Source of the DNA: Planctomycetota bacterium
GTDB taxonomy: Bacteria; Planctomycetota; Phycisphaerae; Phycisphaerales; UBA1924
Assembly: GCA_039208875.1 (NCBI GenBank)
Contig: JBCCQU010000001.1
Span: 1 to 23,815, forward strand
Reading direction: 5' to 3'
Length of the DNA stretch: 23,815 nt
The notes below the pieces were generated by a model. It did not search any database. It was given only the letters and a program-made list of their open reading frames with translations, and was not told the origin of the DNA. Numbering within the stretch: position 1 is the first letter of the stretch; every line of letters starts with the position of its first letter. A program made the translations under genes and the position numbers. Shown here one piece after another: positions 4,322-23,815 of this stretch.

Positions 4322-5052
4322 GGCTCGGGCTCCTCCGCGAGGCGGCGGTAATACTGCTCGGTCATGCGGCGATACAGCGTGCTGAAGGTCTCGTTGGTGC
4401 CCTGCACCAGCGCGTCGCGCAATCGTGCGGGCAGGTTGCCCCACGCTGCGAGGTCCGCAGCCTCGGGATCATTCAGCGCACCATCCTGGCGGCCCGGCGG
4501 CATCGACTCCTGCTCGCCCTCACCCTGCGCCTGCTGCGATTCTTGCTGCTGGCCCTGTTGCTGTTGCGCCCGCGGCTGATTGGGCTGGCTCTGCTGTTGG
4601 CCTTGTTGCTGCTGGCCGCCTTGCTGCTGTTGCTGTTGTTGTTGCTGACGACGCTGCGCCTCATCAATAAGGTCGTCGAGCGATCGCAGGATGTCTTCCT
4701 GAATACGCTGCGTTGCGAGGCCCGCATCGCGCGACGCACCGAGCCGCGCACCCGCACGCGACATCAGATCGACCGCCCGCTCGAAGCGCTCCGGCTGCGA
4801 TCGGCCGTCTTCGCCAGCGAGCGCACGATCAACGTAGTCGTCGGCTCCTTCGTCCGCGACTTCATCGGTGCCGGGCTCCGCTTCGTCTTCGTCGAGGCCG
4901 AGAAGCTCATCGAGCCCGGGCAGCGGCTGATCGGCTGCCGGTTCTTCGGCGGGTTCTTCAGCAGGCTCGGCTTGCGGCTCCGTAGCCGGCTGAGCAGTCG
5001 CAAGCCCGGCTGCAACAACCAGCGCGAGCCACGCGGGTGCGAGCTTCGTCAT
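4318..5052 (-). CDS. secreted acidic low-complexity protein with EP/PE repeats and a long poly-Gln tract
   Basis: The ATG at 5052 overlaps the upstream TGA (ATGA). The signal peptide is MTKLAPAWLALVVAAGLATAQP. An EPQAEPAEEPAEEPAAD acidic linker is followed by QRRQQQQQQQQQGGQQQQGQQQSQPNQPRAQQQQGQQQESQQ. Confidence 0.55.
   Translation of the reverse strand: MTKLAPAWLALVVAAGLATAQPATEPQAEPAEEPAEEPAADQPLPGLDELLGLDEDEAEPGTDEVADEGADDYVDRALAGEDGRSQPERFERAVDLMSRAGARLGASRDAGLATQRIQEDILRSLDDLIDEAQRRQQQQQQQQQGGQQQQGQQQSQPNQPRAQQQQGQQQESQQAQGEGEQESMPPGRQDGALNDPEAADLAAWGNLPARLRDALVQGTNETFSTLYRRMTEQYYRRLAEEPEP
4525..4656. repeat. CAG/CAA-type trinucleotide low-complexity tract encoding poly-Gln (CTG/TTG-rich on the plus strand)
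   Basis: Plus strand ...ctgctgcgattcttgctgctggccctgttgctgttg...ttgctgctgttgctgttgttgttgctg... codes residues 133-176 of the 4318..5052 protein. Confidence 0.7.
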
Positions 5053-8954: not shown

Positions 8955-8976
8955 TGGGTGTTGCGGCGGTGCTGCG

Positions 8977-11379: not shown

Positions 11380-13643
11380 GCAGCGATCCCCGGCGTGCTG
11401 TCGCTCGATGTCTTGGCGTGGCTGAAGAAGCGGGCGAGGATCATCTCGATCGCAGCGAAGGCGAGCGCCGCGGCGAAGAGCACAGCGGACAGCCCCGCGC
11501 CGGCGCCATCGCCGAGCCCGGCTTCGAGCGTCGAGCTTCGGTCGCCGCCTGTGCGCGTGCGATTCGTTGTTGTGTCATCGAGCCAGATGGGGCTCGCGCC
11601 CGCGAAGGCTGAGGTAAGCCATGCCTCGACGCTGTCGCGAGGTTGCGTGGTGGTGTCGCTGCCGCGGGTATCGGGATTGATCGCGATGGCTGCCGTGCGT
11701 CGGCCTCGCTCGTCCTCGATGGCGTACGCCGCGGCATCGCGGATCGGTTCGGTCGTGGTCGCATCGAGCACCGCACCGGCGTCGGTTTCGTCGAGCCGGC
11801 GGAGCGTCGCTGCGTTGGGTGGCAGGGTCGGCGCGTTGCCCGCGATGATCGATGCCACGCCGGCGGAGACACCCGCACCCTGCCGCGTGAGCTCTTGCAA
11901 CAGCGGCACGACGAGCGGCGTCGCGGGCAGGTTCGACCAATCGACATCGAGCGCGACCGAGCTCGTGATGAGCAGGCCCCCGGTGCGAGATGTGCCGGTC
12001 GATGCGCGCACGGCGGTGAGCAGTGGCTGGCCGTCGCTTGTCGCAAGCAGTATTTTGACAGGTTGGCCTTGCGCAGCGGTGATCGGCAGCCGGCGCGCGA
12101 TGGTGACGGGCCGCGCGAGTTCGCTGAGCTCTGCGCGGATCAGCCCGAGCAGGTCGTCACCGGTTGTCGGTTGTTCGATGCCGATGGTGAGGCTTTCGAC
12201 ATCCTCGGCTTCGCTGGCGATCTCGATCGGCGGCTCGCTGTCGAAGGCGGCTGCCAGCATGGCGTCGGGCCAGAGGTGCACCGCGATGCCGTTGGGCGGG
12301 AAGACGATGACGAGGCCGCCGCGGCTGAGCATCTCGGCGACGCGCGACCAGCCGGCAGCGGAGACTTGATCGGGGCGTGTGATGATGAGTCCGTCGAGCG
12401 TGGCGAGGTCGGCGGTGTCGAGCGAAGCGGGGTCGAGATCGGTCGTGGTCACCGCACCGATGGGCCGACCGAAGGCATCCCGATCAGGCCGGAGCGCGAG
12501 CCGCACCCAGTCGGCGCCCTCGTAGCTATCAAGCCGCGGACGCGAGCCGAAGCGGCGAAGGCCCGCGACACCGAGGCGGAGCTCCGGCCGAAGCCGAACG
12601 ACCGCCCGGCGCGTGTTGTCTGCTTCGAGCGCGTCGCGATCGATGGAGGCTTCGAGCACAGCAGCGGGATCGTCGCCGGCGCTGACGAGGTCTGCCGGAT
12701 TGATCGAGAGCGTCGTGCTGGCTTCGGTCTGCCCCGGCTGCCAGCGCACGGTCGCGCGGGCTTCGCTCGCTCGGCCCAGCACGCGCACACGCACGGTTGT
12801 TGTCGCCGCTTCGCTTTCACCGGAGCGTGCAAGCGCGATGCGCACAGCCGTTGCACTATCCGCGATCGGCCCCGCGCCGGGATCATCGCCCGAGCCGGTG
12901 AGCAGCAGGTCGCGGAGCGGGCGCACATCGGTGATGGCGACGTTGCCGACGTCGGCATCGGGCGGAGCGATGGCAACAAGCGATGTCGGCGGCGACGGCG
13001 GCGGCGTGACCGGTGTGCCGGCTTCGACTGAGCCGCTGCGCGATTCGCTGAGCCACGCGACCATCGCTCGGCCCTCGCCGGGCTCGGGGAGATGATCGGT
13101 GAGCAGCGCGACAGCAGAGGCCGGCGACGTGCGCGCAACGGTTGGCTCCAGCGTTTGCAGCACGCGACGCACGGCGGCGAGATCGCCCGACGGCGGCAGC
13201 ACCACAGCCGAGGCCGGCTCCGACAAGGTGACGACCGCAGCCCGGTCGCCGCGATCTTCGTTGAGTTCTTCGAGCAACTCGATCGCGCGCTCGCGATTGG
13301 CTGCGAATGCCGAGGCTTCGCCGACCTGCACGCCGGAGGTCAGGCTGTCGTCGAGCATCAGGAACAGCGTGACCGGCGCCGACCCTGAGACGCCCGCAGC
13401 GGCGCCGAGCAACGGTCGGCCGAGCGCGAGCGCGAGGAAAAGAACCACCAGGCAGCGTGCGGTGAGCAGGATGATCTGCTCGAGCGTGACGCGCCTTTGT
13501 TGGCGGCGATAAGCCTCCATCAGGAAGCGCATCGCGGCCCAACGCACGGGCTGACGACGCCGGCGCATGAGGAGGTGGATGATGATCGGCAAAGCCACGG
13601 CCAGCAGTCCCGCAGCCAGCAACGCCGGGTTGACAAAGCTCAC
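11376..13643 (-). CDS. aerotolerance-regulator N-terminal (BatA_N / TIGR02226 double-transmembrane) domain protein with a VWA-like region and a C-terminal TM anchor
   Basis: GTG start at 13643, 33 nt after the DUF58 stop. The N-terminus MSFVNPALLAAGLLAVALPIIIHLLMRRRRQP...LLTARCLVVLFLALALGRP is the canonical BatA_N double-TM motif. It is followed by TLFLMLDDSLTSG (VWA-like) and ends with the TM anchor LSAVLFAAALAFAAIEMIL. Confidence 0.75.
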   Translation of the reverse strand: MSFVNPALLAAGLLAVALPIIIHLLMRRRRQPVRWAAMRFLMEAYRRQQRRVTLEQIILLTARCLVVLFLALALGRPLLGAAAGVSGSAPVTLFLMLDDSLTSGVQVGEASAFAANRERAIELLEELNEDRGDRAAVVTLSEPASAVVLPPSGDLAAVRRVLQTLEPTVARTSPASAVALLTDHLPEPGEGRAMVAWLSESRSGSVEAGTPVTPPPSPPTSLVAIAPPDADVGNVAITDVRPLRDLLLTGSGDDPGAGPIADSATAVRIALARSGESEAATTTVRVRVLGRASEARATVRWQPGQTEASTTLSINPADLVSAGDDPAAVLEASIDRDALEADNTRRAVVRLRPELRLGVAGLRRFGSRPRLDSYEGADWVRLALRPDRDAFGRPIGAVTTTDLDPASLDTADLATLDGLIITRPDQVSAAGWSRVAEMLSRGGLVIVFPPNGIAVHLWPDAMLAAAFDSEPPIEIASEAEDVESLTIGIEQPTTGDDLLGLIRAELSELARPVTIARRLPITAAQGQPVKILLATSDGQPLLTAVRASTGTSRTGGLLITSSVALDVDWSNLPATPLVVPLLQELTRQGAGVSAGVASIIAGNAPTLPPNAATLRRLDETDAGAVLDATTTEPIRDAAAYAIEDERGRRTAAIAINPDTRGSDTTTQPRDSVEAWLTSAFAGASPIWLDDTTTNRTRTGGDRSSTLEAGLGDGAGAGLSAVLFAAALAFAAIEMILARFFSHAKTSSDSTPGIAA

Positions 13644-13676
13644 GCCCGGCCCCCGATCGGTTCGCAGCGCGGTGCA

Positions 13677-14738
13677 TCAGCCATACTTGCTCCGCTTGAT
13701 CTGGGCGTTGCGGCGGGCGACGAACGACGCGAGCGGCGGGCCCAGCCAGTCGTACGTATCAACGAGCTGGTAGTCGAAGCCGAAGCGTCGCATGATGCGT
13801 TCGACTTCTTCGCGGTGGTTCTCAAACGCTTCGAGATATGCGGAGCGAACGCTGCGTGGGTCGAGCCGGATGGCTTCTTCGCCCTCGAGCCCAACGAACG
13901 GCGCAGCCTCGCGCAGATTGAACGTGCGCTCGGCGTGGTCGACGACCTGGAAGGCCATGAGATCGTGGCCGCGGTGCCGCACGCGCGCGACGGCTGCGCG
14001 GATGCGCTCCGGGTCGTCGTAGAAGTCACTGATCAGCACGAGAAGGCAGCGGTTGTTGACGTTGGCGAGCGCTTGATCGACCGCTCGGCCCATGTCGGTC
14101 GGCTTATCGACCGGGTGCGTCGCGAGTGCGCCGACGATCTGTCGCCACGTTGCGTTGGCGCCGGAGCGTCGCACAGCAGCGCGGATCTCGTCGGCGAACA
14201 CATACAGCCCGGCGCGGTCGCCCTGCCGAAGCGTGATGTACGCGAGTGCTGCTGCGAATCCTGTCGCGTGGTCGAACTTGCTCCAGTACGTGCGGCCGTC
14301 GCGGCTGGCCTTGCGGCCCGCGCCAGATGCCTCGGAAAACGATCGGCTGCCGTAGTCCATCGAGCCGGAGGAATCGACGAGCACGATGAGGTCGAGGTTG
14401 GTCTCTTGCTGGTACTGCTTGAGGTGCAGCTTGTCGGAGCGTGCGAAGACCTTCCAATCGAGGTGGCGGATGTCGTCGCCCGCGACGTACGGCCGGTGCT
14501 GGGCAAACTCGACGCTGAAGCCCTGGTACGGCGAGCGGTGCTGGCCGGTGTTGATGCCCTCGACGATCATCTTTGCGCGCAGCTCAAACGTCTTGAGCCG
14601 GCTGAGCGTCTGCGGGTGCAGATAGAGCGAGGCGTCTTCTTCCGGCGGCAGCACGCGGTTGCTGTCGGCACGGCCACCCGCTTGGCCACCCGCTTGGCCC
14701 CCGGGGTTGGTCACGGATTTGGGGTCGGGCTCGGGCAT
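13677..14738 (-). CDS. DUF58 family protein (MoxR-associated VWA-like partner)
   Basis: ATG at 14738. ...LKTFELRAKMIVEGINTGQHRSPYQGFSVEFAQHRPYVAGDDIRHLDWKVFARSDKLHLKQYQQE...IVLVDSSGSMDYG... matches the DUF58 core (HRSxxxGxSxEFxxxRxYxxGDDxRxIDW) plus a VWA-like DxSxS. Confidence 0.8.
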   Translation of the reverse strand: MPEPDPKSVTNPGGQAGGQAGGRADSNRVLPPEEDASLYLHPQTLSRLKTFELRAKMIVEGINTGQHRSPYQGFSVEFAQHRPYVAGDDIRHLDWKVFARSDKLHLKQYQQETNLDLIVLVDSSGSMDYGSRSFSEASGAGRKASRDGRTYWSKFDHATGFAAALAYITLRQGDRAGLYVFADEIRAAVRRSGANATWRQIVGALATHPVDKPTDMGRAVDQALANVNNRCLLVLISDFYDDPERIRAAVARVRHRGHDLMAFQVVDHAERTFNLREAAPFVGLEGEEAIRLDPRSVRSAYLEAFENHREEVERIMRRFGFDYQLVDTYDWLGPPLASFVARRNAQIKRSKYG

Positions 14739-14880: not shown

Positions 14881-15900
14881 TCAGACTTCGCCGGCCGGGG
14901 TGCCGCGTTGCCTTCGCTCGCCACGCTCGCCACGGGGCTTGCGGTCGCCGCGTTCGAACTTCTGCCCCCGCTCGCCACGCTTGCCCTTCTGGCCGCGGTC
15001 ACGTTCGCCGGCACCCATGAGCACGCGACTGATCATCTGCGGCGGCAGATCGGCGATGCGGAAATCGTCCTTGTTCTCAAGGAACAACGCCCAGTCGCTG
15101 GCATCGATGTTGCCGTCGCCGTTGAAGTCCGCGGCGTCATCGCCAGCACCGAACGCTTTGGTCGCGGCTGCGATCTCGTTGGCGTCGAAACTGCCGTTGA
15201 AATCGGCGTCGAACGAGCCGATCTTGGCGGAGAGCTTGAGCCGCGGCTTGAAAGCCTCGAACGCAGCCTTGCGCTCTGCGTTCGAGAGCTTGCCGTCGCC
15301 AGCACTGTCAAACTCGGCGGTGACCGAGGCACGGAGGGCCTCAGCCTGCCCGCGGTAGTAAGTCTTGGACGCTTCGCGTTCTTCGGTGCTCAGGTCGCCG
15401 CTTTCGTCCTTGTCCCAGCGGGCCATGAACGCTGCGCGCATGGCCTGGCTCCGCTCGCGGCGTGCCTCGGCGCTGGCTTGCAACTCGTCTTCGGTCACAG
15501 CCCCGTCGCCGTTGCGATCCTGCTTGGCGATGAACTTCTTGCGGCTTTCGGCTGCACGGGCCTCGAGCTTCTCGCGGGCTGCAGCTTTCTCCGCGTCGCT
15601 GATTTCACCGTCGCCATCGGTATCGAATCGCTTGACCCAGTCGGCTTTGGACTTGCCGCCGCGCTTGCCCTCTTCGCCCTTCTCGGCACGCACGGATCGC
15701 ATGGCTTCGCGGGCGGTTGCACGCTCGGATTCGCTGAGCTGGCCGTCGCCGTCCTTGTCGAACTTCTCGATGATCTTGGCTCGGGCTTCGCCGCCACGCG
15801 ACTGATTGGCGTCCTGCGCTGCCGCGATACCAGTCGAAAGCCCCAGGGCGAGGCCCGTGACTGTGAGAAACGCGGCGGTGCTCGGTGTTGAACGGCGCAT
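14881..15900 (-). CDS. secreted multi-EF-hand calcium-binding protein with an Arg/Gly/Glu-rich C-terminal tail
   Basis: ORF track 14881..16056. I prefer the internal ATG at 15900, giving MRRSTPSTAAFLTVTGLALGLSTGIAAAQD (signal peptide). Six D-x-[DN]-x-D-G loops: DKDGDGQLS, DTDGDGEIS, DRNGDGAVT, DKDESGDLS, DSAGDGKLS, DFNGDGNID. The tail is RDRGQKGKRGERGQKFERGDRKPRGERGERRQRG. Confidence 0.75.
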   Translation of the reverse strand: MRRSTPSTAAFLTVTGLALGLSTGIAAAQDANQSRGGEARAKIIEKFDKDGDGQLSESERATAREAMRSVRAEKGEEGKRGGKSKADWVKRFDTDGDGEISDAEKAAAREKLEARAAESRKKFIAKQDRNGDGAVTEDELQASAEARRERSQAMRAAFMARWDKDESGDLSTEEREASKTYYRGQAEALRASVTAEFDSAGDGKLSNAERKAAFEAFKPRLKLSAKIGSFDADFNGSFDANEIAAATKAFGAGDDAADFNGDGNIDASDWALFLENKDDFRIADLPPQMISRVLMGAGERDRGQKGKRGERGQKFERGDRKPRGERGERRQRGTPAGEV

Positions 15901-16121
15901 GGCGGTGTCCTTTCGCTGTGAGGGCCGCGTGCTGCTGTCAGCTCGGCCCGCTACATGTTGGCTTCGGAGGGTAAACGGCTGCGGAGGCTGCGCATTGCAG
16001 GGAATTCGAGGAACGGCGAAACAGCAACACCGGATGCTCAAGGGGTGTTTGAGCACCCCGCCGCCTCGTGCGCCCGAAACGCGGCCGTCCGCTTCCCCAA
16101 CTACATGGTGACCACTCAGCC

Positions 16122-16389: not shown

Positions 16390-18216
16390 CTAGAACGGTG
16401 CCGGCTCGTCGCCACCCATCGGCGGCGGGGGCAGGTCGGGATCGTCATCGAAATACGACTCGTCGGGCAGGTCGGTCGGCTCATCGTCTACGGGTGTGTC
16501 CGGCACATCGTCGACCGACCAGCCGCCGCCACTGGCGCCGCTGCCCCGATCAAAGTCGGTCGGCCCGCCGCCGTCGCGATGGTTCGCAGCGGGTCCGGTG
16601 CGCTCGCGGTGGCCGAACGCAGAGCCAACGCCGCCTCCAGTAGCTGCGCCTGCTCCGACTTGCGGATAGCCGCCGCCGCTCGGCCCGGGCTGCGAGCCCT
16701 GGCTGTAGCTGTCCGGCAAGCCACCGGGCACGGCACCGGGATAGTCGGTGTGGTTGCGGAAGCGGGTGGTCTTGTTGTCCCACGTCAGTTTGACGACGCC
16801 GGTCGGGCCGTTGCGCTGCTTGGCGATGATGAGCTCGGCGAGGTTGGCTTTGTCGGGGTTTTCGTCCAGCCAGTCCGGATCGTTCTTGTGGTAGTACTCC
16901 TCGCGGTGCAGCAGCATCACGACGTCGGCGTCCTGCTCGATCGAGCCAGATTCGCGGAGGTCGCTCATGCGCGGGCGGTTACCCTCTCTTTGTTCGGTGC
17001 CGCGGTTGAGCTGCGCGAGGCAAACCACGGGTAGCCGAAGCTCTCGGGCTAGCGCCTTGATGCCGCGGCTGATGGTCGCGACCTCGATCTGTCGGCTTTC
17101 GCGCGCCGCACCGGGCGAGGTGAGCAACTGCAGGTAGTCGATGACGATGCAGCCGATGCCGTGCTGGGCGACGAGCCGGCGCGAACGTGCGCGCAATTGA
17201 AGGATTGTCAGCGCGGGCGTGTCGTCGATGAACAGCGGCGCTTGCTTGAGTTCGTCACAGGCTTTGATGACCGCTTGGCCGTCGGGCGCGATCTGGCCCG
17301 TGCGTAGCCTTTGCAGATCGACACGCGAGCGCGATGAGATCATGCGTTGCGCGAGGGCGCTCTTCGACATCTCGAGACTGAAGACGAGCGTTGAGACCTT
17401 CTTGCCGCGCTGCACGATGCCGTCGCCGCCGGTCGCGATCTGCTCGGCCAGGTTCAGCGCGAGCGCGGTTTTGCCCATGGATGGTCGGGCTGCGAGGATG
17501 ATCATCTCGCCGGGCTGCAGGCCGCTGAGCTTGTCGTCGAGGTCATCGAAGCCGGTGGGGATGCCGGTGTGCGGCTTGCCCTCCATCTCCTCGAGCCGTT
17601 GCAGCTCTTCCTGCAGGATGATCTCGAGCGCCTGCGTGTCGTTGCGGCCGGGCTCGTCGGCGATCTCGAAGATCGCGGACTGGGCCTTGTCCAGCACCTC
17701 GCGCACGCCGTTGGGACCGAGCTGGCCTGCATGAAACGCGTCGTACAGCATCTCGCCGGCCGAGTGAATGAGCCGCCGCAGCCGGGCTTTGTCCGCGACG
17801 AGCCGTGCGTAGTGCGTGGCGTTGGCAGCCGACGGCACGTGCTCCGCAAGCTCGACCAGATACTCCGCGCCGCCGACGTCTTTGAGTTGGTCAGCGTCGC
17901 GCATGCGGTCGACGAGTTGCACGAGGTCGAGCGAGCGAGTCTCGTCGTAGATCTCGACGAGCCACTTGTAGATCACGCCGTGCTTGCCGACGTAGAAGTC
18001 GTCGGCCGACTTCGTGAAGTCGATCACCTCCATGATCATGTTGGGATCGAGAATCAGCGAGCCGAGCAGCGCCTTCTCAGCCTCGATGGAGTGGGGCGGC
18101 AGACGGTCGAACAACTGATCGATGTTGAACCGTGGCCCGCGGTCGGACTTGCCGCGACGACCCCGACCATCTCCCTGGTCGGTCACCTCGATCTCTTGTC
18201 CGATGCCGTCCTGCAT
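16390..18216 (-). CDS. dnaB: replicative DNA helicase DnaB with a C-terminal low-complexity extension of about 110 aa
   Basis: ORF to 18336. I prefer the ATG at 18216 (MQDGIGQ...). It has the DnaB N-terminal domain (PPHSIEAEKALLGSLILDPN), Walker A (AARPSMGKTALALN), the RecA-like core and KQRNGPTGVVKLTWDNKTTRF. After ...RFRNHTDYPG comes a Gly/Pro/Asp-rich tail ending DDDPDLPPPPMGGDEPAPF. Confidence 0.9.
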   Translation of the reverse strand: MQDGIGQEIEVTDQGDGRGRRGKSDRGPRFNIDQLFDRLPPHSIEAEKALLGSLILDPNMIMEVIDFTKSADDFYVGKHGVIYKWLVEIYDETRSLDLVQLVDRMRDADQLKDVGGAEYLVELAEHVPSAANATHYARLVADKARLRRLIHSAGEMLYDAFHAGQLGPNGVREVLDKAQSAIFEIADEPGRNDTQALEIILQEELQRLEEMEGKPHTGIPTGFDDLDDKLSGLQPGEMIILAARPSMGKTALALNLAEQIATGGDGIVQRGKKVSTLVFSLEMSKSALAQRMISSRSRVDLQRLRTGQIAPDGQAVIKACDELKQAPLFIDDTPALTILQLRARSRRLVAQHGIGCIVIDYLQLLTSPGAARESRQIEVATISRGIKALARELRLPVVCLAQLNRGTEQREGNRPRMSDLRESGSIEQDADVVMLLHREEYYHKNDPDWLDENPDKANLAELIIAKQRNGPTGVVKLTWDNKTTRFRNHTDYPGAVPGGLPDSYSQGSQPGPSGGGYPQVGAGAATGGGVGSAFGHRERTGPAANHRDGGGPTDFDRGSGASGGGWSVDDVPDTPVDDEPTDLPDESYFDDDPDLPPPPMGGDEPAPF

Positions 18217-18320
18217 ACGCGTTCCTTCGCGGCCGGGCCTCGGCTGCTTCCGTGCAGAGCTTCCGGCAGCAGCGGCGTGCGGGTCGTGCAGCGCCAACAA
18301 CCGACAAGCTCTTGCACAGG

Positions 18321-18329
18321 TTATCCACG
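18321..18329. promoter_or_regulatory. DnaA-box-like 9-mer TTATCCACG in the dnaB/pdxH divergent intergenic region
   Basis: It matches the TTATNCACA consensus at 8 of 9 positions. It lies about 105 bp upstream of the dnaB start and about 26 bp upstream of the pdxH ATG. It is a single AT-rich word in GC-rich DNA. Confidence 0.3.
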
Positions 18330-18354
18330 AGGGCAACGCGGCATATCGTCAGGC

Positions 18355-19026
18355 ATGGCCGATAGCTTTCTCGACACGTTCAGCCCGCACAACACCTTGC
18401 CCGAGGATCTGCCAGCCGATCCGTTCCCGCTGTTTCAGCGGTGGTTCGACGAGGCCCGCGAGAGCGGCGACCAACCCAACCCCAACGCGATGACGCTGGC
18501 CACGGTGGATGCCGACGGCACGCCGTCCGCCCGCATCGTGCTGTGCAAAGCGATCGAGGCCGACGCGGGCGTGGTGCGATTCTTCACGAATTACGCGGGC
18601 CGCAAGGGGAGATCGCTCGATAACGAGCCGCGGGCCGCGGTGGTCTTTCACTGGGATCACCCCGATCGGCAGGTGCGCATGGAAGGCCGCGTGACCAAGT
18701 CGTCAGCCGAGGTGAGCGACGCGTATTACGCGAGCCGGGCGTGGGAGAGTCGGCTCGGGGCGTGGGCGAGTCGGCAGTCGGAGCCGCTCACGAGCCGCGA
18801 GCAGTTGCTCGAGCAAGTCGTCGAGGCCGTGTCGCAGCTCGATGTCGATATCGCGGGGCTGATGAACGGGCAGGAAGTCGATCTGCCGAGGCCGCCGCAC
18901 TGGGGCGGGTTTGATCTGCGGGCCGAGGCTGTGGAGCTGTGGCTCGGTGGCCCGGGCCGGGTGCACGACCGCGCCCGCTGGGAGCGAACCGGCGACGGCT
19001 GGTCGTCGACGCGGTTGCAGCCGTAG
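18355..19026 (+). CDS. pdxH: pyridoxamine/pyridoxine 5'-phosphate oxidase (PdxH)
   Basis: The ATG at 18355 (MADSFLDT...) lies within the longer track ORF 17569..19026. NPNAMTLATVDADGTPSARIVLCK...VVFHWDHPDRQVRMEGRV...WGGFDLRAEAVELW... matches PNPOx family motifs, and the 223-aa length is typical. Confidence 0.85.
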   Translation: MADSFLDTFSPHNTLPEDLPADPFPLFQRWFDEARESGDQPNPNAMTLATVDADGTPSARIVLCKAIEADAGVVRFFTNYAGRKGRSLDNEPRAAVVFHWDHPDRQVRMEGRVTKSSAEVSDAYYASRAWESRLGAWASRQSEPLTSREQLLEQVVEAVSQLDVDIAGLMNGQEVDLPRPPHWGGFDLRAEAVELWLGGPGRVHDRARWERTGDGWSSTRLQP

Positions 19027-19029
19027 GCG

Positions 19030-21735
19030 TTAGTCCGCGATGCGCCGCTGAGGGCGATCGCCGTAGTGCTTGCGGATCGCCCGCGCGAGTTCGCGGATGG
19101 TCATCGGCCGAACGCCCATGCGACTTCGGCGTGCGCCGATCGCGAACAGCAGCTTCCATTGCCTCGCAAGCGTGAGGTAGCTGCGCCACACCGGCCACGA
19201 CGGGTCGTAGATGTTGGTTGATTCGCTGGTGTTGCCGTTCAGCTCGACGATGCCGAAGCCCTCGCCGCGTTTGAGCGCATCGTCGGTGTCGTAACGCAGG
19301 TCGAATCGGCCGAAGTCGAGCCCGGTATCGCCGAACTTGAACGGATAGCTGGTGTGCTTCGCGGTGTAGCTCGCGACGACATCGGTGAGCGCAGCCTCGA
19401 GGGCGGGCGTGATGAGGTCTTCGCCATCGGAGAACAGCGCGCCCTGCGCGTGATTGCCAGCTTTGCCGAGAGAAACGACGCTGCTGTTCTTCGGGATTTC
19501 GTCGCGGCGCGCGCCCAGGCGTTGCATGAACACATCGGCCTGCCGGCGGTAGCGTTTGTGCGCGTAGATCAGTTGCTCAAGTGTGCGCTTGCCGTCGCCG
19601 ATCACCGCGGGGAATGTCTTGCGATTGATGCTGAAGATGCAGCCCTTGCCGGCGTCGTCTCGATACCACAGCACGCCGGCCTCGTTCGGACCCGGGTGAT
19701 ACCGCTGAATCACCATCGGCCGATGGTCGTTGCGCAGCACGTCGAGCAGCGTGTCGGGATCGGCAACGAAGCGCACGCCGACGCCGCGCTGTCCGGCGTC
19801 CGGCTTGAGGATGATGCCCGGCGCGTCGCCGCGAAGCTCCGGTTGCGAAGCGGTGATCGTTCGCACACGCGTGGCCCGTTCTTCGGGCGTGCCGCCGGCT
19901 GGCAGCAGCGCGTGCGGCAGGGCGCCCGGATGGTCGAAGCCGGACATGATCTCGTGCTTGCTCTCGCCGATGACGCCGCCGCCATCGGGGATGCCGGGGT
20001 TGGACGATGTCCATGTCATCGGGCCGCCGTGCCGGGCTGCGAGCCACACCAGATACGGCACGATCGGCAGATACAGCAGCCATGTCGGCCAATACTCGTG
20101 GTGGATGATGCGTTCGATGTCCGCGATCAGCCGTGCGCGCCCGGCGGGCGTGACGCACAGCAACAAGCCGCGGCTCGCGATGTATCCCGGATAGATCGAC
20201 ACGAGCGCGACCCAGCCCGCGGCCAGTCCGGTCGCCGCAGCGATCGCGGTGCCGATGGCGAACGCTGGGAGAATCGCAGCGGCTGTCCACAACACGCAAC
20301 CGAGCACCGCGCCGGCTGCCCAGCGCGGGCCGGGCGCTGCGACCTCGCGGCCTGCAGCCAGTCCGTCGCTGCGCTCCCAAGGCCGGAACCGGAGCGCAAA
20401 CGACCACACAAACGGACGTCCATCGCTGCGCGCGTGCCAGAGCGTGCGCGCATCGTCGGTCAAGCGATGGCGTCTGCCGACGAGCTCGAGCATGGCGAGA
20501 AACGCAGCGACGCTCGCGACGCCGATGTCGAGCCAGACCGCAGCGACGAGCGAGCCAAGCACAGCCGATCCGAGTTCGGGCTTCCACCACACAAGCAACG
20601 CGAACACCGGCACCAGCGACCACCACGGCGCAAGGCGTAAGCCGAGTTCGAGCCATGTCGGTGGCGGCACCGGCGCGAGGTCGATCGCTGTGCGCACGGG
20701 CTCGACGCCCGGCATGTCGTGACGCTCAAGAAACGGCACGAGATGCGACGCTGTTGCCTCGGGCTGAACGAACGGCAGGAAGTGGCTGGCGTCCATCATC
20801 ACAAGGCGTGATGTTGGGATGAGATCGTGATGCGCTTCGGCGCCCCATGCCGGCGTGAGAAAGTCATCGCGGCCGTGCAGCACGAGTGTCGGCACGGTGA
20901 GCTGTTCCATAATTGCGCGCAGCGGCCGTTGATCGGTATCCCAGAAGTTTCGGATGAATGCGAGCCTTCCCTCGTGCGGGCCGAAGAGGCCGAAGTGGGG
21001 GAGGAGATCGGGGCCGATCGCGATGGCGATGTAGCCGAGCGCGTACTTGGCGTGCTCGAAGAAGTAGTCGCCCGAGCCCTCGGCTTCTTGCAAGCCGACC
21101 GACGCGAGCATCGTGAGTGACGCGAGCCGATCGGCATTGTTGTCGGCCATGTGCAGCGCAACGCCGCCGCCGTTCGACCAACCAACGATGTGCGCTCGAT
21201 CGATGCCGAGCTCGTCGAGCAAGGCCTGTGCGTAGCGGGCGTGCGCAGCGATCGAGTAATCCGGGATGCGCCAGTCCGACCAGCCAAAGCCGGGCAGGTC
21301 GGGCGCGATGACGTGGTAGCCGGCGTCGGCGAGCAACGGCCCGAGATACTCGAAATTGGCGCCCATGCCGGGCGAGCCGTGGAGCAGCAGCACCGGAGGA
21401 CGGCCGCTGCGCTTGATGGCGTCGCGTGCCGCGTCGAGGTTGCTGCCTTCGCCGCCGCCCGCAGCCAACCACGTGCGCATCTCGACCTCGGCTTCGCCCC
21501 AATATTCAAAGGTCATGCGCACGGTATCGGCGTCTGCTACAGGGCCGTTCGCATCGAACGCTGGCACCGTGAGGTTGTACCGTTTGTCGGTCGGCAGGCG
21601 ATCGGGCAGCGACGCGGACGAGATGTTCCACGAGATCGCGACGAGGATCGCGTAGACGATGAGGCCGAGGGCAACTTTCGTGCGCACGTCGTAACGCCAT
21701 GCGCGCAGCCGGTCTTGCCACGAACTTGCGCTCAT
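19030..21735 (-). CDS. membrane fusion protein: N-terminal alpha/beta-hydrolase, central polytopic TM region, C-terminal ATP-grasp (RimK-like amidoligase) domain
   Basis: The ATG at 21735 overlaps the rlmN TGA (ATGA). The N-terminal TM helix is followed by the hydrolase fold: VLLLHGSPGMGANFEYLGP, nucleophile elbow HIVGWSNGGGVALHMA (GxSxG), LVLHGRDDFLTP (Asp), MMDASHFLPF (His). Residues ~370-600 carry several hydrophobic helices. The C-terminus shows GIILKPDAGQRGVGVRFV (ATP-grasp phosphate loop) and FGIVELNGNTSEST (E-x-N Mg site). Confidence 0.7.
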   Translation of the reverse strand: MSASSWQDRLRAWRYDVRTKVALGLIVYAILVAISWNISSASLPDRLPTDKRYNLTVPAFDANGPVADADTVRMTFEYWGEAEVEMRTWLAAGGGEGSNLDAARDAIKRSGRPPVLLLHGSPGMGANFEYLGPLLADAGYHVIAPDLPGFGWSDWRIPDYSIAAHARYAQALLDELGIDRAHIVGWSNGGGVALHMADNNADRLASLTMLASVGLQEAEGSGDYFFEHAKYALGYIAIAIGPDLLPHFGLFGPHEGRLAFIRNFWDTDQRPLRAIMEQLTVPTLVLHGRDDFLTPAWGAEAHHDLIPTSRLVMMDASHFLPFVQPEATASHLVPFLERHDMPGVEPVRTAIDLAPVPPPTWLELGLRLAPWWSLVPVFALLVWWKPELGSAVLGSLVAAVWLDIGVASVAAFLAMLELVGRRHRLTDDARTLWHARSDGRPFVWSFALRFRPWERSDGLAAGREVAAPGPRWAAGAVLGCVLWTAAAILPAFAIGTAIAAATGLAAGWVALVSIYPGYIASRGLLLCVTPAGRARLIADIERIIHHEYWPTWLLYLPIVPYLVWLAARHGGPMTWTSSNPGIPDGGGVIGESKHEIMSGFDHPGALPHALLPAGGTPEERATRVRTITASQPELRGDAPGIILKPDAGQRGVGVRFVADPDTLLDVLRNDHRPMVIQRYHPGPNEAGVLWYRDDAGKGCIFSINRKTFPAVIGDGKRTLEQLIYAHKRYRRQADVFMQRLGARRDEIPKNSSVVSLGKAGNHAQGALFSDGEDLITPALEAALTDVVASYTAKHTSYPFKFGDTGLDFGRFDLRYDTDDALKRGEGFGIVELNGNTSESTNIYDPSWPVWRSYLTLARQWKLLFAIGARRSRMGVRPMTIRELARAIRKHYGDRPQRRIAD

Positions 21736-22871
21736 GGCGTGGTGAGGCCGACGTAGCGTCGCTTGCGGATGTGTGCTGCCCCGAGCTGGCCGCAGGCTGC
21801 CATTTGCGATCGGCCTTTGGTCCGGCGTCGCTTGACGAACACGCCGCGATCAATGAGGTCGGCGATGAAGCGTTCCACATCTTCTTCGTTGGGGGCGGGC
21901 CACGGCGAGTTGCGGCGCGGGTTGTACGGGATGACGTTCACGAGGCCGCGCGGCACGGGCGTGTCGCTGCTCGAAAGCCAGGGCGAGAGATAGTCGGCCA
22001 GCTCGTGCGCATGCTCGGTGCGGTCGTTCACGCCGGGGATGAGCACGTATTCGAAGCACAGCTTCTTGCCCGGGCCGAGCGGGACTTGGAGCAGCGCATC
22101 GCGCAGGTCGGCCATCGGCATCGTGCGGTTGATCGGCATGATCTCGTTGCGCACATCGTCGTTGGGTGCGTTGACGCTGATGGCTAGACCGAGCCGATGC
22201 CATCCGGGTTGTTGCATCGCGCGGGCGAGCTTGCGGATGCCATCGACGCGGCCGACGGTCGAGACGGTGATCTTGCTCATCGGGATCGCGGGGCCGTGGT
22301 GGTCCGTGAGTATGGCGATGGCATCGATGACCGCGGCGGGATTGTCCATCGGCTCGCCCATGCCCATGAACACGATGTTGTTGATGACGGTCGGCTCGGT
22401 GAACGGCGTGCCGAAGCGGGCGTTGAACCATTGCGCGACGATCTCGTCGACGGTGAGTGATCGGATGAGGCCCATCTGCGCGGTCTCGCAGAAGCCGCAG
22501 CCCATGCCGCATCCAACTTGCGAGCTGACGCAGAGCGTGCTGGTGCGCGCACCGCGGCGGCCGATCATCGGGATGATGACCGATTCGACCTCAAGGTGTT
22601 CGACTCGTCCATCGCCGGCGATCGGGCCCTTGCTCGGGCGATCGACGCGGGTGAGAAACTTGGTCGTGACGCCCTCGGGTGTGTCCTCGCTGTGCGCACC
22701 GGTGACGGGCAGCGATGCATGCGGCTGGGGCAGCTTGCCGTGCCGGAGCGCGTCGTGATAGAGCTTCATCGCGCCGGGCCGTTTGATGCCGAGCTCGAGG
22801 CACGCAGCCGCGAAGCGATCGTGCGTCATCGCGAGCGGGTTGGGCACGGGTTTGGCTGCACCGATCGTCAC
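21732..22871 (-). CDS. rlmN: 23S rRNA (adenine2503-C2)/tRNA methyltransferase, radical SAM (RlmN)
   Basis: LCVSSQVGCGMGCGFCETAQMG is the RlmN/Cfr radical-SAM CxxxCxxC context. MGMGEP, VSTVG and the C-terminal MAACGQL are conserved RlmN motifs. The start is GTG at 22871 or the internal ATG at 22829 (MTHDRFAAACLELG...). Confidence 0.85.
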   Translation of the reverse strand: MTIGAAKPVPNPLAMTHDRFAAACLELGIKRPGAMKLYHDALRHGKLPQPHASLPVTGAHSEDTPEGVTTKFLTRVDRPSKGPIAGDGRVEHLEVESVIIPMIGRRGARTSTLCVSSQVGCGMGCGFCETAQMGLIRSLTVDEIVAQWFNARFGTPFTEPTVINNIVFMGMGEPMDNPAAVIDAIAILTDHHGPAIPMSKITVSTVGRVDGIRKLARAMQQPGWHRLGLAISVNAPNDDVRNEIMPINRTMPMADLRDALLQVPLGPGKKLCFEYVLIPGVNDRTEHAHELADYLSPWLSSSDTPVPRGLVNVIPYNPRRNSPWPAPNEEDVERFIADLIDRGVFVKRRRTKGRSQMAACGQLGAAHIRKRRYVGLTTP

Positions 22872-22901
22872 GCCGCGATGGTATCCGGGCGCGGCGGCGA
22901 G

Positions 22902-23726
22902 TTAGTTGTCGGTGGCAGCGGCGCTGGTCTGGCCGCTGTCGGTTGTGCGATCGCGCTTGGGCTGCGCGGTTGGCGAGCGATCGACCATGGAATCGAGCAT
23001 GGTGCCGATGAGCGCGACGGTCTCGGCGTTGCCGTCGGCTTGGCCGCCGCCGCCTTGATTGACCATGACGCGTGGCGTGATCTCGATGGCGTTGTCGCCG
23101 ACGATCTTGAGGAGCTCGACGAGGGCTGCGTTGCCGGCGCCGATCTGCTCGGAGACCAAGCGGAACGCCTCGGCTCGTGCTGAGGCTTCGATCTGGATGG
23201 CCTCGGCCTCGGCTTGCGCCTCGATGATGCGTTTCTGCTGCGACTGCTCGGCGATTTGCACCTCGTAGCTGGCTGTGGCGAGGCGGCGCTCCTCCTCGGC
23301 TTCTTGCTCGGTGCGTGTCAGTTCCTTTTTCTGCTCGGCTGCTCGCTGCTGTTCTTGGAAGGTGATTTGCTCTTGAAGCGCGATTTCGCGATCGGTTTGT
23401 GTCTTCAGCAGCGGGGCGAGGTCCGGATCGTTGGTGCCGACGTCGCCGATGCGCACAGCAACGATGGACACGCCGCGTTCGGCCATCTCGTCGCGGAGCA
23501 TCGAGAGCGATTGGCTCTCTTGCTGCGAGCGCTGCTGCACGTAGTCGAGTGCCTTCACGTCTTCGGCGTTGTTGCGGAATATGGCGCGGACGGATGAGTT
23601 CAGCGGGTTGACGACTTTCTCTCGGTCGTCGCCGAGCTTGGCAATGACGACCGGTGCGAGCGATGGCTCGATGGCGTACTCGACGCGGACATCGACGGGA
23701 AAGGTAAAGCCGTCGCTTGTGCGCAC
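22902..23726 (-). CDS. SPFH/band-7 (flotillin/HflC-like) domain protein, apparently interrupted; coding continues upstream to the window edge
   Basis: The track ORF starts at GTG 23726, but the same frame stays open from 23815 down to a TAA at 23742-23744, reading ...VSIVSNEVRILYFTAGRAGQGTD*QRPITVRTSDGFTFPVDVRVEYAI.... The body shows the band-7 pattern (T.DG...V.VDV.V.Y.I), then a coiled-coil (EQQRAAEQKKELTRTEQEAEEERR; IEAQAEAEAIQIEASARAEA) and a Ser/Thr-rich tail. Confidence 0.65.
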   Translation of the reverse strand: MRTSDGFTFPVDVRVEYAIEPSLAPVVIAKLGDDREKVVNPLNSSVRAIFRNNAEDVKALDYVQQRSQQESQSLSMLRDEMAERGVSIVAVRIGDVGTNDPDLAPLLKTQTDREIALQEQITFQEQQRAAEQKKELTRTEQEAEEERRLATASYEVQIAEQSQQKRIIEAQAEAEAIQIEASARAEAFRLVSEQIGAGNAALVELLKIVGDNAIEITPRVMVNQGGGGQADGNAETVALIGTMLDSMVDRSPTAQPKRDRTTDSGQTSAAATDN

Positions 23727-23815
23727 GGTGATGGGGCGTTGTTAGTCGGTGCCTTGGCCGGCGCGGCCCGCGGTGAAGTAGAGGATGCGAACTTCGTTGG
23801 ACACGATGGAAACGG

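Follow-up and report, generated by a model that had tools for sequence, protein, structure and literature searches.

A planctomycete protein family that joins an alpha/beta hydrolase, VTT/DedA-related helices and an ATP-grasp ligase, with a possible role in aminolipid head-group modification

Analysis of a 23,815-nt stretch of planctomycete DNA (hereafter the window) showed that a complete open reading frame on the minus strand (19030..21735, stop codon at 19030-19032) is a genuine single gene encoding a 901-aa inner-membrane enzyme with three modules: an alpha/beta hydrolase, a polytopic helical region and an ATP-grasp ligase. The reading that we tentatively prefer, and consider quite possible, is that the family is a tRNA-independent system that would modify, move and trim the head group of an aminolipid.

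The ORF list contains the gene as one polypeptide, as originally predicted, and all the motifs claimed for it are found in the protein. An identical sequence is deposited at NCBI as 'MAG: alpha/beta hydrolase [Planctomycetota bacterium]'. At E <= 1e-3 the protein is matched by 902 others, and the best 120 of these (E <= 1e-185) share 35-51% identity with it, the majority being full-length and colinear and a few aligning over less than half of the query. The original prediction had named a frameshift, or two genes merged by the ORF caller, as a result that would overturn it. This is excluded by the colinear homologues, by a 113-sequence family alignment that shows no break and by a full-length AlphaFold2 (AF2) model that is confident over the whole length (mean pLDDT 93.4, pTM 0.89). 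The origin of the contig from a metagenome-assembled genome is all that we found in favour of an artefact produced by frameshift or assembly error, and with more than 100 colinear full-length homologues from independent assemblies against it, such an artefact is extremely improbable.

Residues 1-41 (21613..21735, minus strand) comprise a basic cytoplasmic tail and a signal-anchor helix, TM1 (core 21-39), as indicated by hydropathy and by the AF2 model, in which a helix covers residues 6-41; the tail carries five K+R (family median four) and two follow the TM1 helix. The alpha/beta-hydrolase domain comes next (residues 52-340; 20716..21582, minus strand), with the Abhydrolase_1/6 fold and the G-x-S-x-G elbow, acid and His in canonical order. 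Its motifs are HGSPG at 119-123 (oxyanion), GWSNGG at 185-190, HGRDDF at 287-292 and DASHF at 315-319, and the catalytic residues Ser187 (21175-21177), Asp291 (20863-20865) and His318 (20782-20784), all encoded on the minus strand, are invariant among the 113 aligned homologues. Matches in Pfam and NCBIfam back the hydrolase assignment made earlier. All 37 NCBIfam matches of the window protein are sub-threshold, and the absence of OlsI (NF052614) from the best 25 of these 37 rules out the domain as an OlsI equivalog.

Hydrophobic helices do lie between the two catalytic domains, as had been described, but they cover about 208 residues (361 to 568) rather than about 230. The AF2 model places eleven helices within approximately 361-568, and hydropathy peaks occur at 364-382, 396-414, 476-494, 494-512 and 509-527. 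No Pfam family matches residues 346-570 of the window protein at E <= 10. Among 33 homologues, eight match PF09335 (VTT_dom), and hhalign of the window clade against the VTT-positive homologues gave a probability of 98.8% (E 4.5e-17), a score due in part to conserved flanks; the alignment is gapped where the signature loop would be, and in it Glu387 and Asp403 of the window protein correspond to the acidic pair of the VTT-positive proteins. As judged from these profile comparisons, the polytopic region at residues 361-528 (20152..20655, minus strand) is a diverged domain that shares descent with the VTT/DedA (lipid-scramblase-type) domain. The signature loop GDxGLWxxGRxxGR is missing from the helical region of the window protein, and the loop GDxGLWxxGR is found in none of 20 RlmN-linked loci and in 30 of 37 TANGO2/GH3-linked loci. 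The earlier reading of the helical middle contained neither this origin, nor the placement of the catalytic domains on opposite faces, nor the spread of the family.

Residues 529-568 (20032..20151, minus strand), delimited by invariant columns and the AF2 model, form a basic amphipathic helix and a proline-rich hydrophobic helix (AF2 helices 530-544 and 551-568) that contain the motifs GRxRL and HEYWPxWxxYLPxxP, with R533, E547 and W549 invariant. In the ligase-only relatives P0124 and P0254 the same segment opens the ligase after a strongly basic N-terminus. Its probable role is to keep the ligase at the inner leaflet as an interfacial anchor.

The remainder of the chain (residues 569-901; 19033..20031, minus strand) is an ATP-grasp carboxylate-amine ligase domain, with the ATP-grasp fold and the motifs LKPDAGQRGVGV at 643-654, FGRFDLR at 808-814 and IVELNGN at 829-835. 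The phosphate-binding Lys644 of LKPD (19804-19806), Arg810 and Asp812 of GRFDLR (Asp812 at 19300-19302), and Glu831 (19243-19245) and Asn833 (19237-19239) of ELNG, all on the minus strand, are invariant in the 113 sequences, and in the alignment profile cyanophycin synthase has 'IKP', 'D' and 'EvN' opposite K644, D812 and the E-x-N pair. The ATP/Mg residues are all intact, and carboxylate-amine ligation is predicted from them. The kinship of the ligase to known structures was found with the alignment profile and not with the single sequence, for which Pfam returned a weak TTL match (E 0.012), NCBIfam returned cyanophycin synthetase (E 0.029, 12.4 bits against a cut-off of 850) and phmmer of the C-terminal 366 aa against the PDB returned chance matches only (XRCC3, porin). 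Structurally the ligase comes closest to the G domain of CphA1/CphA2, to GshF, to Ddl and to LysX/ArgX, and the nearest solved ATP-grasp enzymes use amino acids, peptides or proteins, not lipids. A relationship to the RimK-like ligases that occur with 7TM and inactive transglutaminase modules had been proposed and was not supported; the partner modules are missing. None of the families PF08443, PF14397 and PF14401 matches the window protein at E <= 0.1; RimK (PF08443) matches one of 15 C-terminal homologues (E 0.3) and one of 33 full-length homologues (E 0.0049).

These relatives bring up another reading, membrane-associated synthesis of a poly-amino acid or peptide in the style of cyanophycin synthetase or RimK, in which the ATP-grasp domain would extend the C-terminus of a cytoplasmic peptide or protein, the helical domain would export or anchor the product and the outer hydrolase would depolymerise or release it. 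We regard it as improbable: the protein lacks both the Mur-ligase-like M domain and the N domain of CphA, neither a carrier protein nor a cyanophycinase is found as a neighbour, identity to CphA1 is only about 18%, and the conservation of the interfacial helix, like the VTT fusion, suggests that the substrate resides in the membrane.

The orientation in the membrane was deduced from charge bias and from domain permutations among relatives. The N-tail and the loops 419-469 (10 K+R) and 529-550 are K/R-rich, and the linker from the hydrolase to the membrane is acidic. One relative (P0244) has an N-terminal cytoplasmic TANGO2 domain, the residues KRDKRW and one TM helix before the hydrolase; P0254 has the ligase first, then a single TM helix and then the hydrolase; and at L077 a gene of its own encodes the hydrolase, complete with a signal anchor. 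These three independent arrangements imply an odd number of crossings between a cytoplasmic domain and the hydrolase. Most likely, on these sequence features, the hydrolase is periplasmic and the ligase cytoplasmic, on opposite faces of the membrane, and we infer the number of crossings within residues 364-418.

Domains placed in this way could carry two independent activities on a shared membrane scaffold, for example a periplasmic esterase or lipase and an unrelated cytoplasmic ligase, with no common substrate. Such independence would fit the window clade, where the VTT signature that would link one face with the other has been lost, as well as the existence of relatives with a ligase and no hydrolase (L054, L062 and P0124). 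However, hydrolases of one subfamily are paired with the ligase in three arrangements, as an N-terminal fusion, as a C-terminal fusion (P0254) and as a separate downstream gene (L077, 53% identical), and this repeated independent association argues for a coupled function; the full-length model is also compact (pTM 0.89). We thus think it unlikely that the two activities are unrelated.

The family is large, with 1,339 cluster representatives at E <= 1e-30, and is present in at least 451 species genomes, mostly of Phycisphaerae (Planctomycetota), where its current annotation is 'alpha/beta hydrolase' only. It splits into two groups, one with the VTT domain intact and one in which the VTT signature was lost, and the copy in the window belongs to the second, an RlmN/pdxH-linked clade. 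The architecture had been called uncharacterised, and this agrees with our search of the published literature on combinations of DedA/VTT, ATP-grasp, TANGO2 and ornithine lipids, in which the family is not described and whose scope did not include the amidoligase survey of Iyer et al. 2009 (PMC3268129).

The genes around the VTT-intact group point to lipids. In its operon, TANGO2 and a DinB-like protein accompany an OlsI-like hydrolase and a GH3 protein that resembles the lyso-ornithine-lipid synthetase OlsH. The family gene lies downstream of GH3 and alpha/beta-hydrolase genes in 25 of 83 related loci, and in eight loci olsI-olsH come directly before the fusion gene. The operon GH3 matches the NCBIfam model 'lyso-ornithine lipid synthetase OlsH' over its full length (E 1.3e-105) with a score below the equivalog cut-off (353.9 against 620), and the 296-aa OlsI-like hydrolase of one locus (L001) matches the OlsI model weakly, with 69.8 bits against a cut-off of 385. 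TANGO2 is found immediately upstream in 29 loci, often with a 4-nt overlap, and is fused to the N-terminus in P0244; the bacterial TANGO2 copy retains Cys2 and the NRDE motif. In planctomycetes OlsH and the alpha/beta hydrolase OlsI constitute the ornithine-lipid pathway and are always in one operon (PMC12493201), and for TANGO2 a Cys-Ntn amidohydrolase activity on derivatives of fatty acids has been proposed (PMC13044924). Since relatives are operonic with ornithine-lipid genes and TANGO2, the substrate of the family is probably a lipid rather than a peptide. The copy in the window has no ols, TANGO2 or DinB genes within the 23.8 kb, its neighbours being housekeeping genes, and when the whole window was searched by tblastn with TANGO2, GH3 and the OlsI-like hydrolase, the hydrolase domain of the gene itself was the sole match. 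For the window protein, which is in the other clade, the lipid link is therefore based on homology to the operon-linked clade, at 41-47% identity.

The same neighbourhoods bear on a role in cell-wall precursor synthesis, in which the ligase would add an amino acid to the lipid II stem peptide or to an undecaprenyl-linked intermediate, as D-Ala-D-Ala or D-aspartate ligases do, while the DedA-derived domain handled the polyprenyl-phosphate carrier and the hydrolase trimmed the product. No mur, ddl or fem-type gene recurs near the 83 loci, whose recurrent neighbours are OlsH-like, OlsI-like, TANGO2, DinB-like, RlmN and PdxH genes; the Mur fragment of the window is 18 kb away on the other strand, and the window protein lacks the VTT signature. 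A cell-wall substrate is accordingly rather unlikely.

In the window itself, the gene upstream and co-directional (21732..22871, minus strand) encodes an RlmN/Cfr-family radical SAM methyltransferase (Pfam Radical_SAM; NCBIfam TIGR00048, E 8.3e-67, 225.6 bits, below the 290-bit cut-off). The minus strand at the junction reads ...ACG CCA TGA GCG..., and the rlmN stop TGA (21732-21734) overlaps the ATG of the 901-aa gene (21733-21735) in the ATGA at 21732..21735 that had been described before. An alternative start exists, a GTG at codon 17; the overlapping ATG is the likely start, a choice supported by the RlmN-linked loci, since four of the 20 others share the identical -4 overlap and most of the remaining junctions measure -8 to +21 nt. 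Downstream, the convergent gene pdxH (pyridoxamine 5'-phosphate oxidase; 18355..19026, plus strand; PNPOx_N E 2.1e-23, PNP_phzG_C E 6e-13) probably starts at 18355 (MADSF), its stop codon and that of the 901-aa gene lie 3 nt apart, and its convergent orientation rules out a functional tie. A promoter and terminator scan of 18300-23815 gave nothing above shuffled expectation. TruD and BFN genes are also kept downstream in Phycisphaerae loci; gene order is broadly conserved in this class, so that adjacency alone is weak evidence, also for the lipid link.

The ATGA overlap indicates that rlmN and the 901-aa gene are co-transcribed, and on the sequence of the junction they are probably also translationally coupled. 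Because the overlap sits in a conserved rlmN-gene-pdxH block, the coupling looks like inherited gene order and not like shared function or chemistry. A function tied to RlmN, in RNA or ribosome modification, would explain the overlap, the RlmN homologue directly upstream in 20 of the 83 loci (in one part of the tree only) and its retention even at the ligase-only locus L054. We hold it to be very improbable, since the protein crosses the membrane several times and probably has a domain in the periplasm, the sister clade has TANGO2 or OlsH-like genes in the position of RlmN, a PdxH homologue is also conserved downstream in 14 related loci (convergent in 12), so that the whole block looks inherited, and no known RlmN partner resembles the protein.

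In the aminolipid reading that we prefer, the order along the chain is basic tail and signal anchor, hydrolase, VTT/DedA-derived helices, interfacial helices and ATP-grasp ligase. The ligase, held at the inner leaflet, would phosphorylate the head-group carboxylate of a membrane lipid and would join an amine or amino acid to the activated carboxylate; our guess is that the lipid is of the ornithine type, in full or lyso form, and that its free alpha-carboxylate is the group used. The helical domain would present the lipid or move it across the bilayer, and the periplasmic hydrolase would de-acylate, trim or trans-acylate it on the outer face. The earlier idea of synthesis and trimming at the membrane is a reasonable hypothesis. 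The analysis establishes the ORF, the domains with their catalytic residues and folds, the distribution of the family and its gene neighbourhoods; the topology, the lipid substrate and the reaction we infer.

If this reading is true, the family would provide the first case of an ATP-grasp enzyme with an assigned role in the chemistry of membrane-lipid head groups and the first VTT/DedA-type domain in an enzyme with an active site on each membrane face. It would also be a candidate for aminolipid modifications, in planctomycetes and elsewhere, that are still unassigned, such as ATP-dependent amine transfer to the ornithine-lipid carboxyl. The sister clade puts a bacterial TANGO2 in one operon, and once in the same polypeptide, with OlsH-like N-acyl-amino-acid synthesis, which makes the debated role of TANGO2 testable in a bacterial system. 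A more specific version, which we offer as speculation and find doubtful, casts the family as a self-contained machine that would 'make, flip, trim' aminolipid head groups independently of tRNA. In it the cytoplasmic ATP-grasp domain would amidate the free alpha-carboxylate of ornithine-type lipids with an amine or amino acid, the VTT-derived domain would translocate the product, the periplasmic hydrolase would remove or re-acylate it, and TANGO2, the operon partner that is sometimes fused, would be the amidase for the aminolipid. A biochemically known reaction is the ATP-dependent transfer of taurine to the carboxyl group of ornithine lipid, to which no gene has been assigned (PMC12971839). 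If the specific version is true, the family would be the kind of ATP-dependent transferase for ornithine-lipid head groups that has lacked a gene since the 1970s, and bacteria would offer a way to approach the substrate, as yet unknown, of TANGO2 as a human disease protein.

Among known systems, the best profile and Foldseek matches to the ligase are the CphA1 G domain, CphA2 and the ATP-grasp half of GshF/GshAB, with which it shares the ATP-grasp fold, the 'KP' strand Lys, R-x-D, E-x-N and the 'GDG..T..ELI' insert. Only the G-domain region of CphA1 aligns (C-terminal fragment query 104-289 with CphA1 245-433), and there is no Mur_ligase match in Pfam. Compared with Ddl, LysX/ArgX and RimK, the window protein has no Pfam RimK or Dala_Dala_lig match, its ligase has a reduced N-terminal subdomain and a membrane context, and the 7TM and inactive transglutaminase modules are missing. 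Many homologues carry a bona fide VTT domain (PF09335, the family of bacterial DedA and of eukaryotic TMEM41B and VMP1) between hydrolase and ligase, whereas free-standing DedA proteins have no catalytic domains. The membrane-anchored alpha/beta-hydrolase lipases (the phospholipase A PlaF, ABHD6) are also among the closest known systems. Like OlsI, the fused domain is an alpha/beta hydrolase, and in the sister clade OlsI-like and OlsH-like genes precede the family gene in one operon; publications on OlsHI make no mention of that gene, ATP-grasp, TANGO2 or DedA. The logic that we propose is that of MprF (reviewed in PMC6103681) and the periplasmic aa-PG hydrolases AhyD, PA0919/VirJ and AcvB (PMC13197417 and PMC11980842): a head group modified at the inner leaflet, translocation by a fused polytopic domain and a hydrolase that controls the level. 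The analogy would be functional only, as there is no homology to MprF, which uses aminoacyl-tRNA and a GNAT-like synthase, and no GNAT-like tRNA-dependent synthase domain was found in the window protein with Pfam or NCBIfam. In contrast to MprF, the putative system described here would use an ATP-grasp synthase and a VTT-derived translocator, with the hydrolase in the same polypeptide.

The fusion gene occupies 19030..21735 on the minus strand, beginning in the ORF list at the first start codon past an in-frame stop, and the identical protein is found in NCBI as 'alpha/beta hydrolase' from the 23,815-bp Planctomycetota MAG contig. The search returned 902 proteins matching the 901-aa protein; the best 120 of these 902 share 35–51% identity with it, and the majority are full-length and colinear. 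The 113-sequence alignment of the family shows no break, and AlphaFold2 gave a confident model of the full-length protein (mean pLDDT 93.4, pTM 0.89). These data exclude a frameshift or merged-gene artefact, the case named by the original prediction as its refutation and one to which we give practically no credence. The 901-aa ORF is a genuine gene encoding one polypeptide, as had been proposed, and all the motifs quoted at that time were found in it.

The hydrolase module (residues about 52–340, minus strand) was recognised by Pfam Abhydrolase_1 (E 5.6e-30) and Abhydrolase_6 (E 1.8e-15), and contains HGSPG (residues 119–123), GWSNGG (185–190), HGRDDF (287–292) and DASHF (315–319). Ser187, Asp291 and His318 are invariant across 113 homologues, in agreement with the complete Ser-Asp-His hydrolase predicted originally, and so are the family-specific lid residues E219, G220, E227, Y231, P246, F248, F264, D268 and R270. 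By its residues the domain looks catalytically competent; its substrate is not given by the fold alone. Many alpha/beta-hydrolase equivalogs of NCBIfam (PcaD, BioH etc.) matched, all partially and below threshold, and the module was therefore placed in no specific subfamily.

Single-sequence searches were nearly blind to the ligase module (residues about 569–901, minus strand): Pfam returned TTL at E 0.012, the PDB gave chance matches only, and none of the ATP-grasp models suggested beforehand (PF08443, PF14397, PF14401) matches the 901-aa protein in Pfam. A profile built from 15 homologues was used, and its top match was the cyanophycin synthase G domain (E 7.8e-7), the weaker matches being nearly all ATP-grasp enzymes. 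This is consistent with the Foldseek comparison of the AlphaFold2 model of residues 525–901 (pLDDT 87.5) with the PDB, in which CphA1 came first (E 1.5e-8), followed by CphA2, GshAB, D-Ala-D-Ala ligases and TTL. The module carries LKPDAGQRGVGV (residues 643–654), FGRFDLR (808–814) and IVELNGN (829–835); no change at K644, R810, D812, E831 or N833 was seen in 113 homologues, and the positions aligned with them in cyanophycin synthase are its phosphate-binding Lys and its Mg-binding Asp and Glu-x-Asn. Because the profile, the structural match and the conserved ATP/Mg residues agree, the module is a divergent and probably active ATP-grasp ligase, and the ATP-grasp assignment originally made is upheld. 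Synthesis of a peptide or poly-amino-acid by the fusion protein is a rival reading that we consider improbable.

The helical middle (residues about 361–568, minus strand) had been described as plain hydrophobic helices. The helical region is real, but its VTT/DedA ancestry was missed: Pfam PF09335 (VTT/DedA domain) was detected in this region of many homologues (8/33 in one set, and also the homologous proteins P0222 and P0244), and profile-profile comparison of the window clade with the VTT-positive relatives gave a probability of 98.8% (E 4.5e-17), a score supplied in part by the conserved flanks. The GDxGLWxxGRxxGR loop of the VTT-positive proteins is a gap in the window clade, which retains the acidic pair E387 and D403, and the window's own helical region had zero Pfam matches at E <= 10. 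Since homology to the VTT-positive relatives is combined with loss of the signature loop and of any Pfam match, these comparisons indicate that the region is a diverged VTT-derived domain that falls outside the Pfam family proper. Two helices come after the VTT-derived part, first a basic amphipathic one that is conserved (with R533, E547 and W549 invariant) and then a proline-rich hydrophobic one, HEYWPxWxxYLPxxP. The same segment opens the ligase-only relatives P0124 and P0254, straight after a strongly basic N-terminus; as the ligase requires ATP, the proline-rich helix cannot span the membrane there, and we regard it as an interfacial anchor.

The topology was inferred from charge bias and domain arrangements. 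The N-terminal tail is basic (K+R = 5 in the window protein, family median 4) and leads into a signal-anchor helix; the linker C-terminal to the hydrolase is acidic, and both loop 419–469 (K+R = 10–11) and segment 529–550 are basic. This pattern fits a protein with the N-terminus in, the hydrolase out, one net crossing at 364–418, a hairpin at 470–528 and the ligase in. Three other arrangements were found among the relatives. P0244, with TANGO2 fused at its N-terminus, runs from this domain, which must be cytoplasmic, through KRDKRW and one TM helix to the hydrolase, and P0254 runs in one chain from ligase through one TM helix to hydrolase. At locus L077 (L077:1939-5358), a VTT-ATP-grasp gene is directly followed by a separate gene for a hydrolase of the same subfamily, with its own signal anchor and C-terminal TM helices; this hydrolase shares 53% identity and the lid motifs with the window's domain. 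The L077 contig carries the label 'uncultured Alcaligenaceae', perhaps through a binning error. From the charge bias and these three independent architectures, the two active sites most likely lie on either side of the membrane. Two unrelated activities might share such a scaffold, and we judge this, too, to be improbable.

A profile search with the ligase domain recovered 3,270 cluster representatives at E <= 1e-3, of which 1,339 reached E <= 1e-30. Judged by length, representatives of about 820–950 aa are full fusions and those of 350–600 aa are VTT-ligase or ligase-only proteins, and longer forms also occur. Relatives are encoded at at least 451 loci (one genome per species), nearly all in Phycisphaerae and some in Gemmataceae. 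When the ligase domains were placed in a neighbour-joining tree, sequences with the VTT motif and with TANGO2 and/or GH3 neighbours formed one clade; in the rest of the tree, where the window sits, the motif is absent and RlmN often precedes. The VTT motif was present at 30 of the 37 TANGO2/GH3-linked loci against none of the 20 RlmN-linked loci.

On its minus strand the window has an SPFH-like ORF, then the RlmN-family gene, then the 901-aa gene, beyond which lies convergent pdxH. There are no TANGO2, GH3 or additional hydrolase genes in the window, whose copy is the subtype with the least informative gene context. The minus-strand junction reads ACG CCA TGA GCG, the rlmN stop and the ATG of the fusion gene sharing ATGA at 21732-21735, just as had been noted from the sequence. 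An RlmN homologue lies immediately upstream at 20 of 83 related loci; apart from the window, four of them show the 4-nt overlap, and for most of the rest the junction measures −8 to +21 nt. The overlap being real and recurrent, co-transcription and translational coupling with rlmN are likely, and the region shows no conspicuous promoter-like or terminator-like site. Downstream, 14/83 loci have a PdxH homologue, which is convergent (opposite strand) at 12 of the 14. In the window, 3 nt separate the convergent stops of pdxH and the 901-aa gene (19024-19032) with no terminator-like hairpin between them. Their transcripts must either overlap or terminate within the opposing gene.

The coupling might suggest an RlmN-related role, but this is very unlikely: the pairing is confined to one part of the tree, and the same slot in the sister clade holds TANGO2 or OlsH-like genes. 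For these reasons, and because pdxH is conserved downstream, we read the pairing as inherited gene order. At some RlmN-linked loci (L054:5811-8044; L062) the downstream protein has only about 411 aa, with interfacial helix and ligase, and rlmN adjacency is thus kept where hydrolase and TM modules are missing. The RlmN-family radical SAM gene of the window (21732-22871, minus strand), with the CGMGCGFC motif and a C-terminal Cys, is under all NCBIfam RlmN/Cfr cut-offs (at best 225.6 bits against 290 for RlmN) and may be a divergent planctomycete RlmN; the NCBIfam RlmN matches start only at about residue 78–110.

Farther off, also on the minus strand, are dnaB, an EF-hand protein and a Bat-type cluster. 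The dnaB ORF (16390-18336) has a long Gly/Pro/Asp-rich low-complexity C-terminal tail and, at the N-terminus, an extension beginning at TTG that may be over-called. The cluster (5049-14738) contains BatA-N/VWA (11376-13643) and DUF58/VWA (13677-14738) genes and, ahead of them, two very long ORFs with zero Pfam matches (5049-8954, 1301 aa; 8977-11379, 800 aa). The 391-aa EF-hand protein (14881-16056) and a prenyltransferase or squalene-hopene-cyclase-like toroid protein (3197-4444, minus strand) have no apparent tie to the fusion gene.

In the sister clade, TANGO2 is immediately upstream of a VTT-ligase or hydrolase-VTT-ligase gene at 29/83 loci, frequently with a 4-nt overlap. The bacterial TANGO2 homologue of locus L001 (L001:5220-5984) begins MCTLTL and has the NRDE motif, and therefore retains the Cys2 nucleophile. 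On the basis of a crystal structure, human TANGO2 has been proposed as a Cys-Ntn hydrolase with fatty-acid derivatives as substrates (PMC13044924), and a bacterial homologue has alternatively been named a heme-trafficking protein (PMC10470608); the linkage to the fusion gene could bear on the substrate of human TANGO2. At 25/83 loci the upstream genes include a GH3 gene and one for a 296-aa alpha/beta hydrolase. A DinB-like ORF stands between GH3 and TANGO2 at 27 loci, and at 8 loci the hydrolase gene and GH3 are followed directly by the fusion gene. The DinB-like ORF (about 190–230 aa; L004:3881-4564 and 26 other loci) is always right upstream of TANGO2 and has weak Pfam matches under the cut-off (DinB E 7.6e-4, DinB_2 E 1.4e-3). 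Its loci include L035, L037, L041, L055 and L075 from Gemmataceae, and DinB-like, TANGO2 and ATP-grasp genes form a conserved triad.

The GH3 gene matched the NCBIfam model 'lyso-ornithine lipid synthetase OlsH' over its full length (E 1.3e-105; 353.9 bits against an equivalog cut-off of 620), and the hydrolase beside it matched OlsI weakly; the OlsI-like and OlsH-like genes precede the fusion gene at L001:2560-5066 and 24 other Phycisphaerae loci. OlsH (GH3) and OlsI (alpha/beta-hydrolase O-acyltransferase), shown in 2025 to constitute a third ornithine-lipid pathway in Singulisphaera acidiphila, are always in one operon in planctomycetes, and ATP-grasp, TANGO2 and DedA are unmentioned in that paper (PMC12493201). 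Our loci extend the OlsHI operon to Phycisphaerae, with extra genes added. According to a 2026 review, taurine transfer onto the carboxyl group of ornithine lipid is ATP-dependent, with no gene assigned (PMC12971839).

An N-acyl-amino-acid synthetase, an O-acyltransferase-like hydrolase and a putative lipid amidase thus recur as operon or fusion partners. Given these links, an inner-leaflet ligase, a scramblase-type domain and an outward serine hydrolase, the most economical reading of the family is a lipid head-group modification system, which we propose tentatively, with somewhat less than even confidence. The ATP-grasp domain would activate a carboxylate carried by a lipid and attach an amine to it, the most plausible candidate being the alpha-carboxylate of an ornithine-type aminolipid or its lyso form; the helical domain would move or present the modified lipid, and the periplasmic hydrolase would trim or re-acylate it. 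Against this reading, no lipid genes adjoin the fusion gene in the window's clade, where the VTT signature has also disappeared; conservation of gene order is general in Phycisphaerae, TruD and BFN being likewise retained downstream; and the closest solved ATP-grasp enzymes act on soluble substrates. Modification of a cell-wall precursor is a minor alternative, to which we give a small chance.

Hydrolase, VTT/DedA and ATP-grasp are domain families already known. In agreement with the view that the architecture is not a characterised enzyme, no description of the fusion, its probable two-sided topology or its operon partners was found in the searchable literature, a scope that does not take in the 2009 amidoligase survey, and we class the protein as an ATP-grasp amidoligase whose membrane-integrated architecture is new. 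The family is large and unannotated, and offers a concrete, testable tie to aminolipid biology and TANGO2. The proposed system would follow the same logic as MprF and the periplasmic aa-PG hydrolases, whereas it is built of unrelated parts and would use no tRNA.
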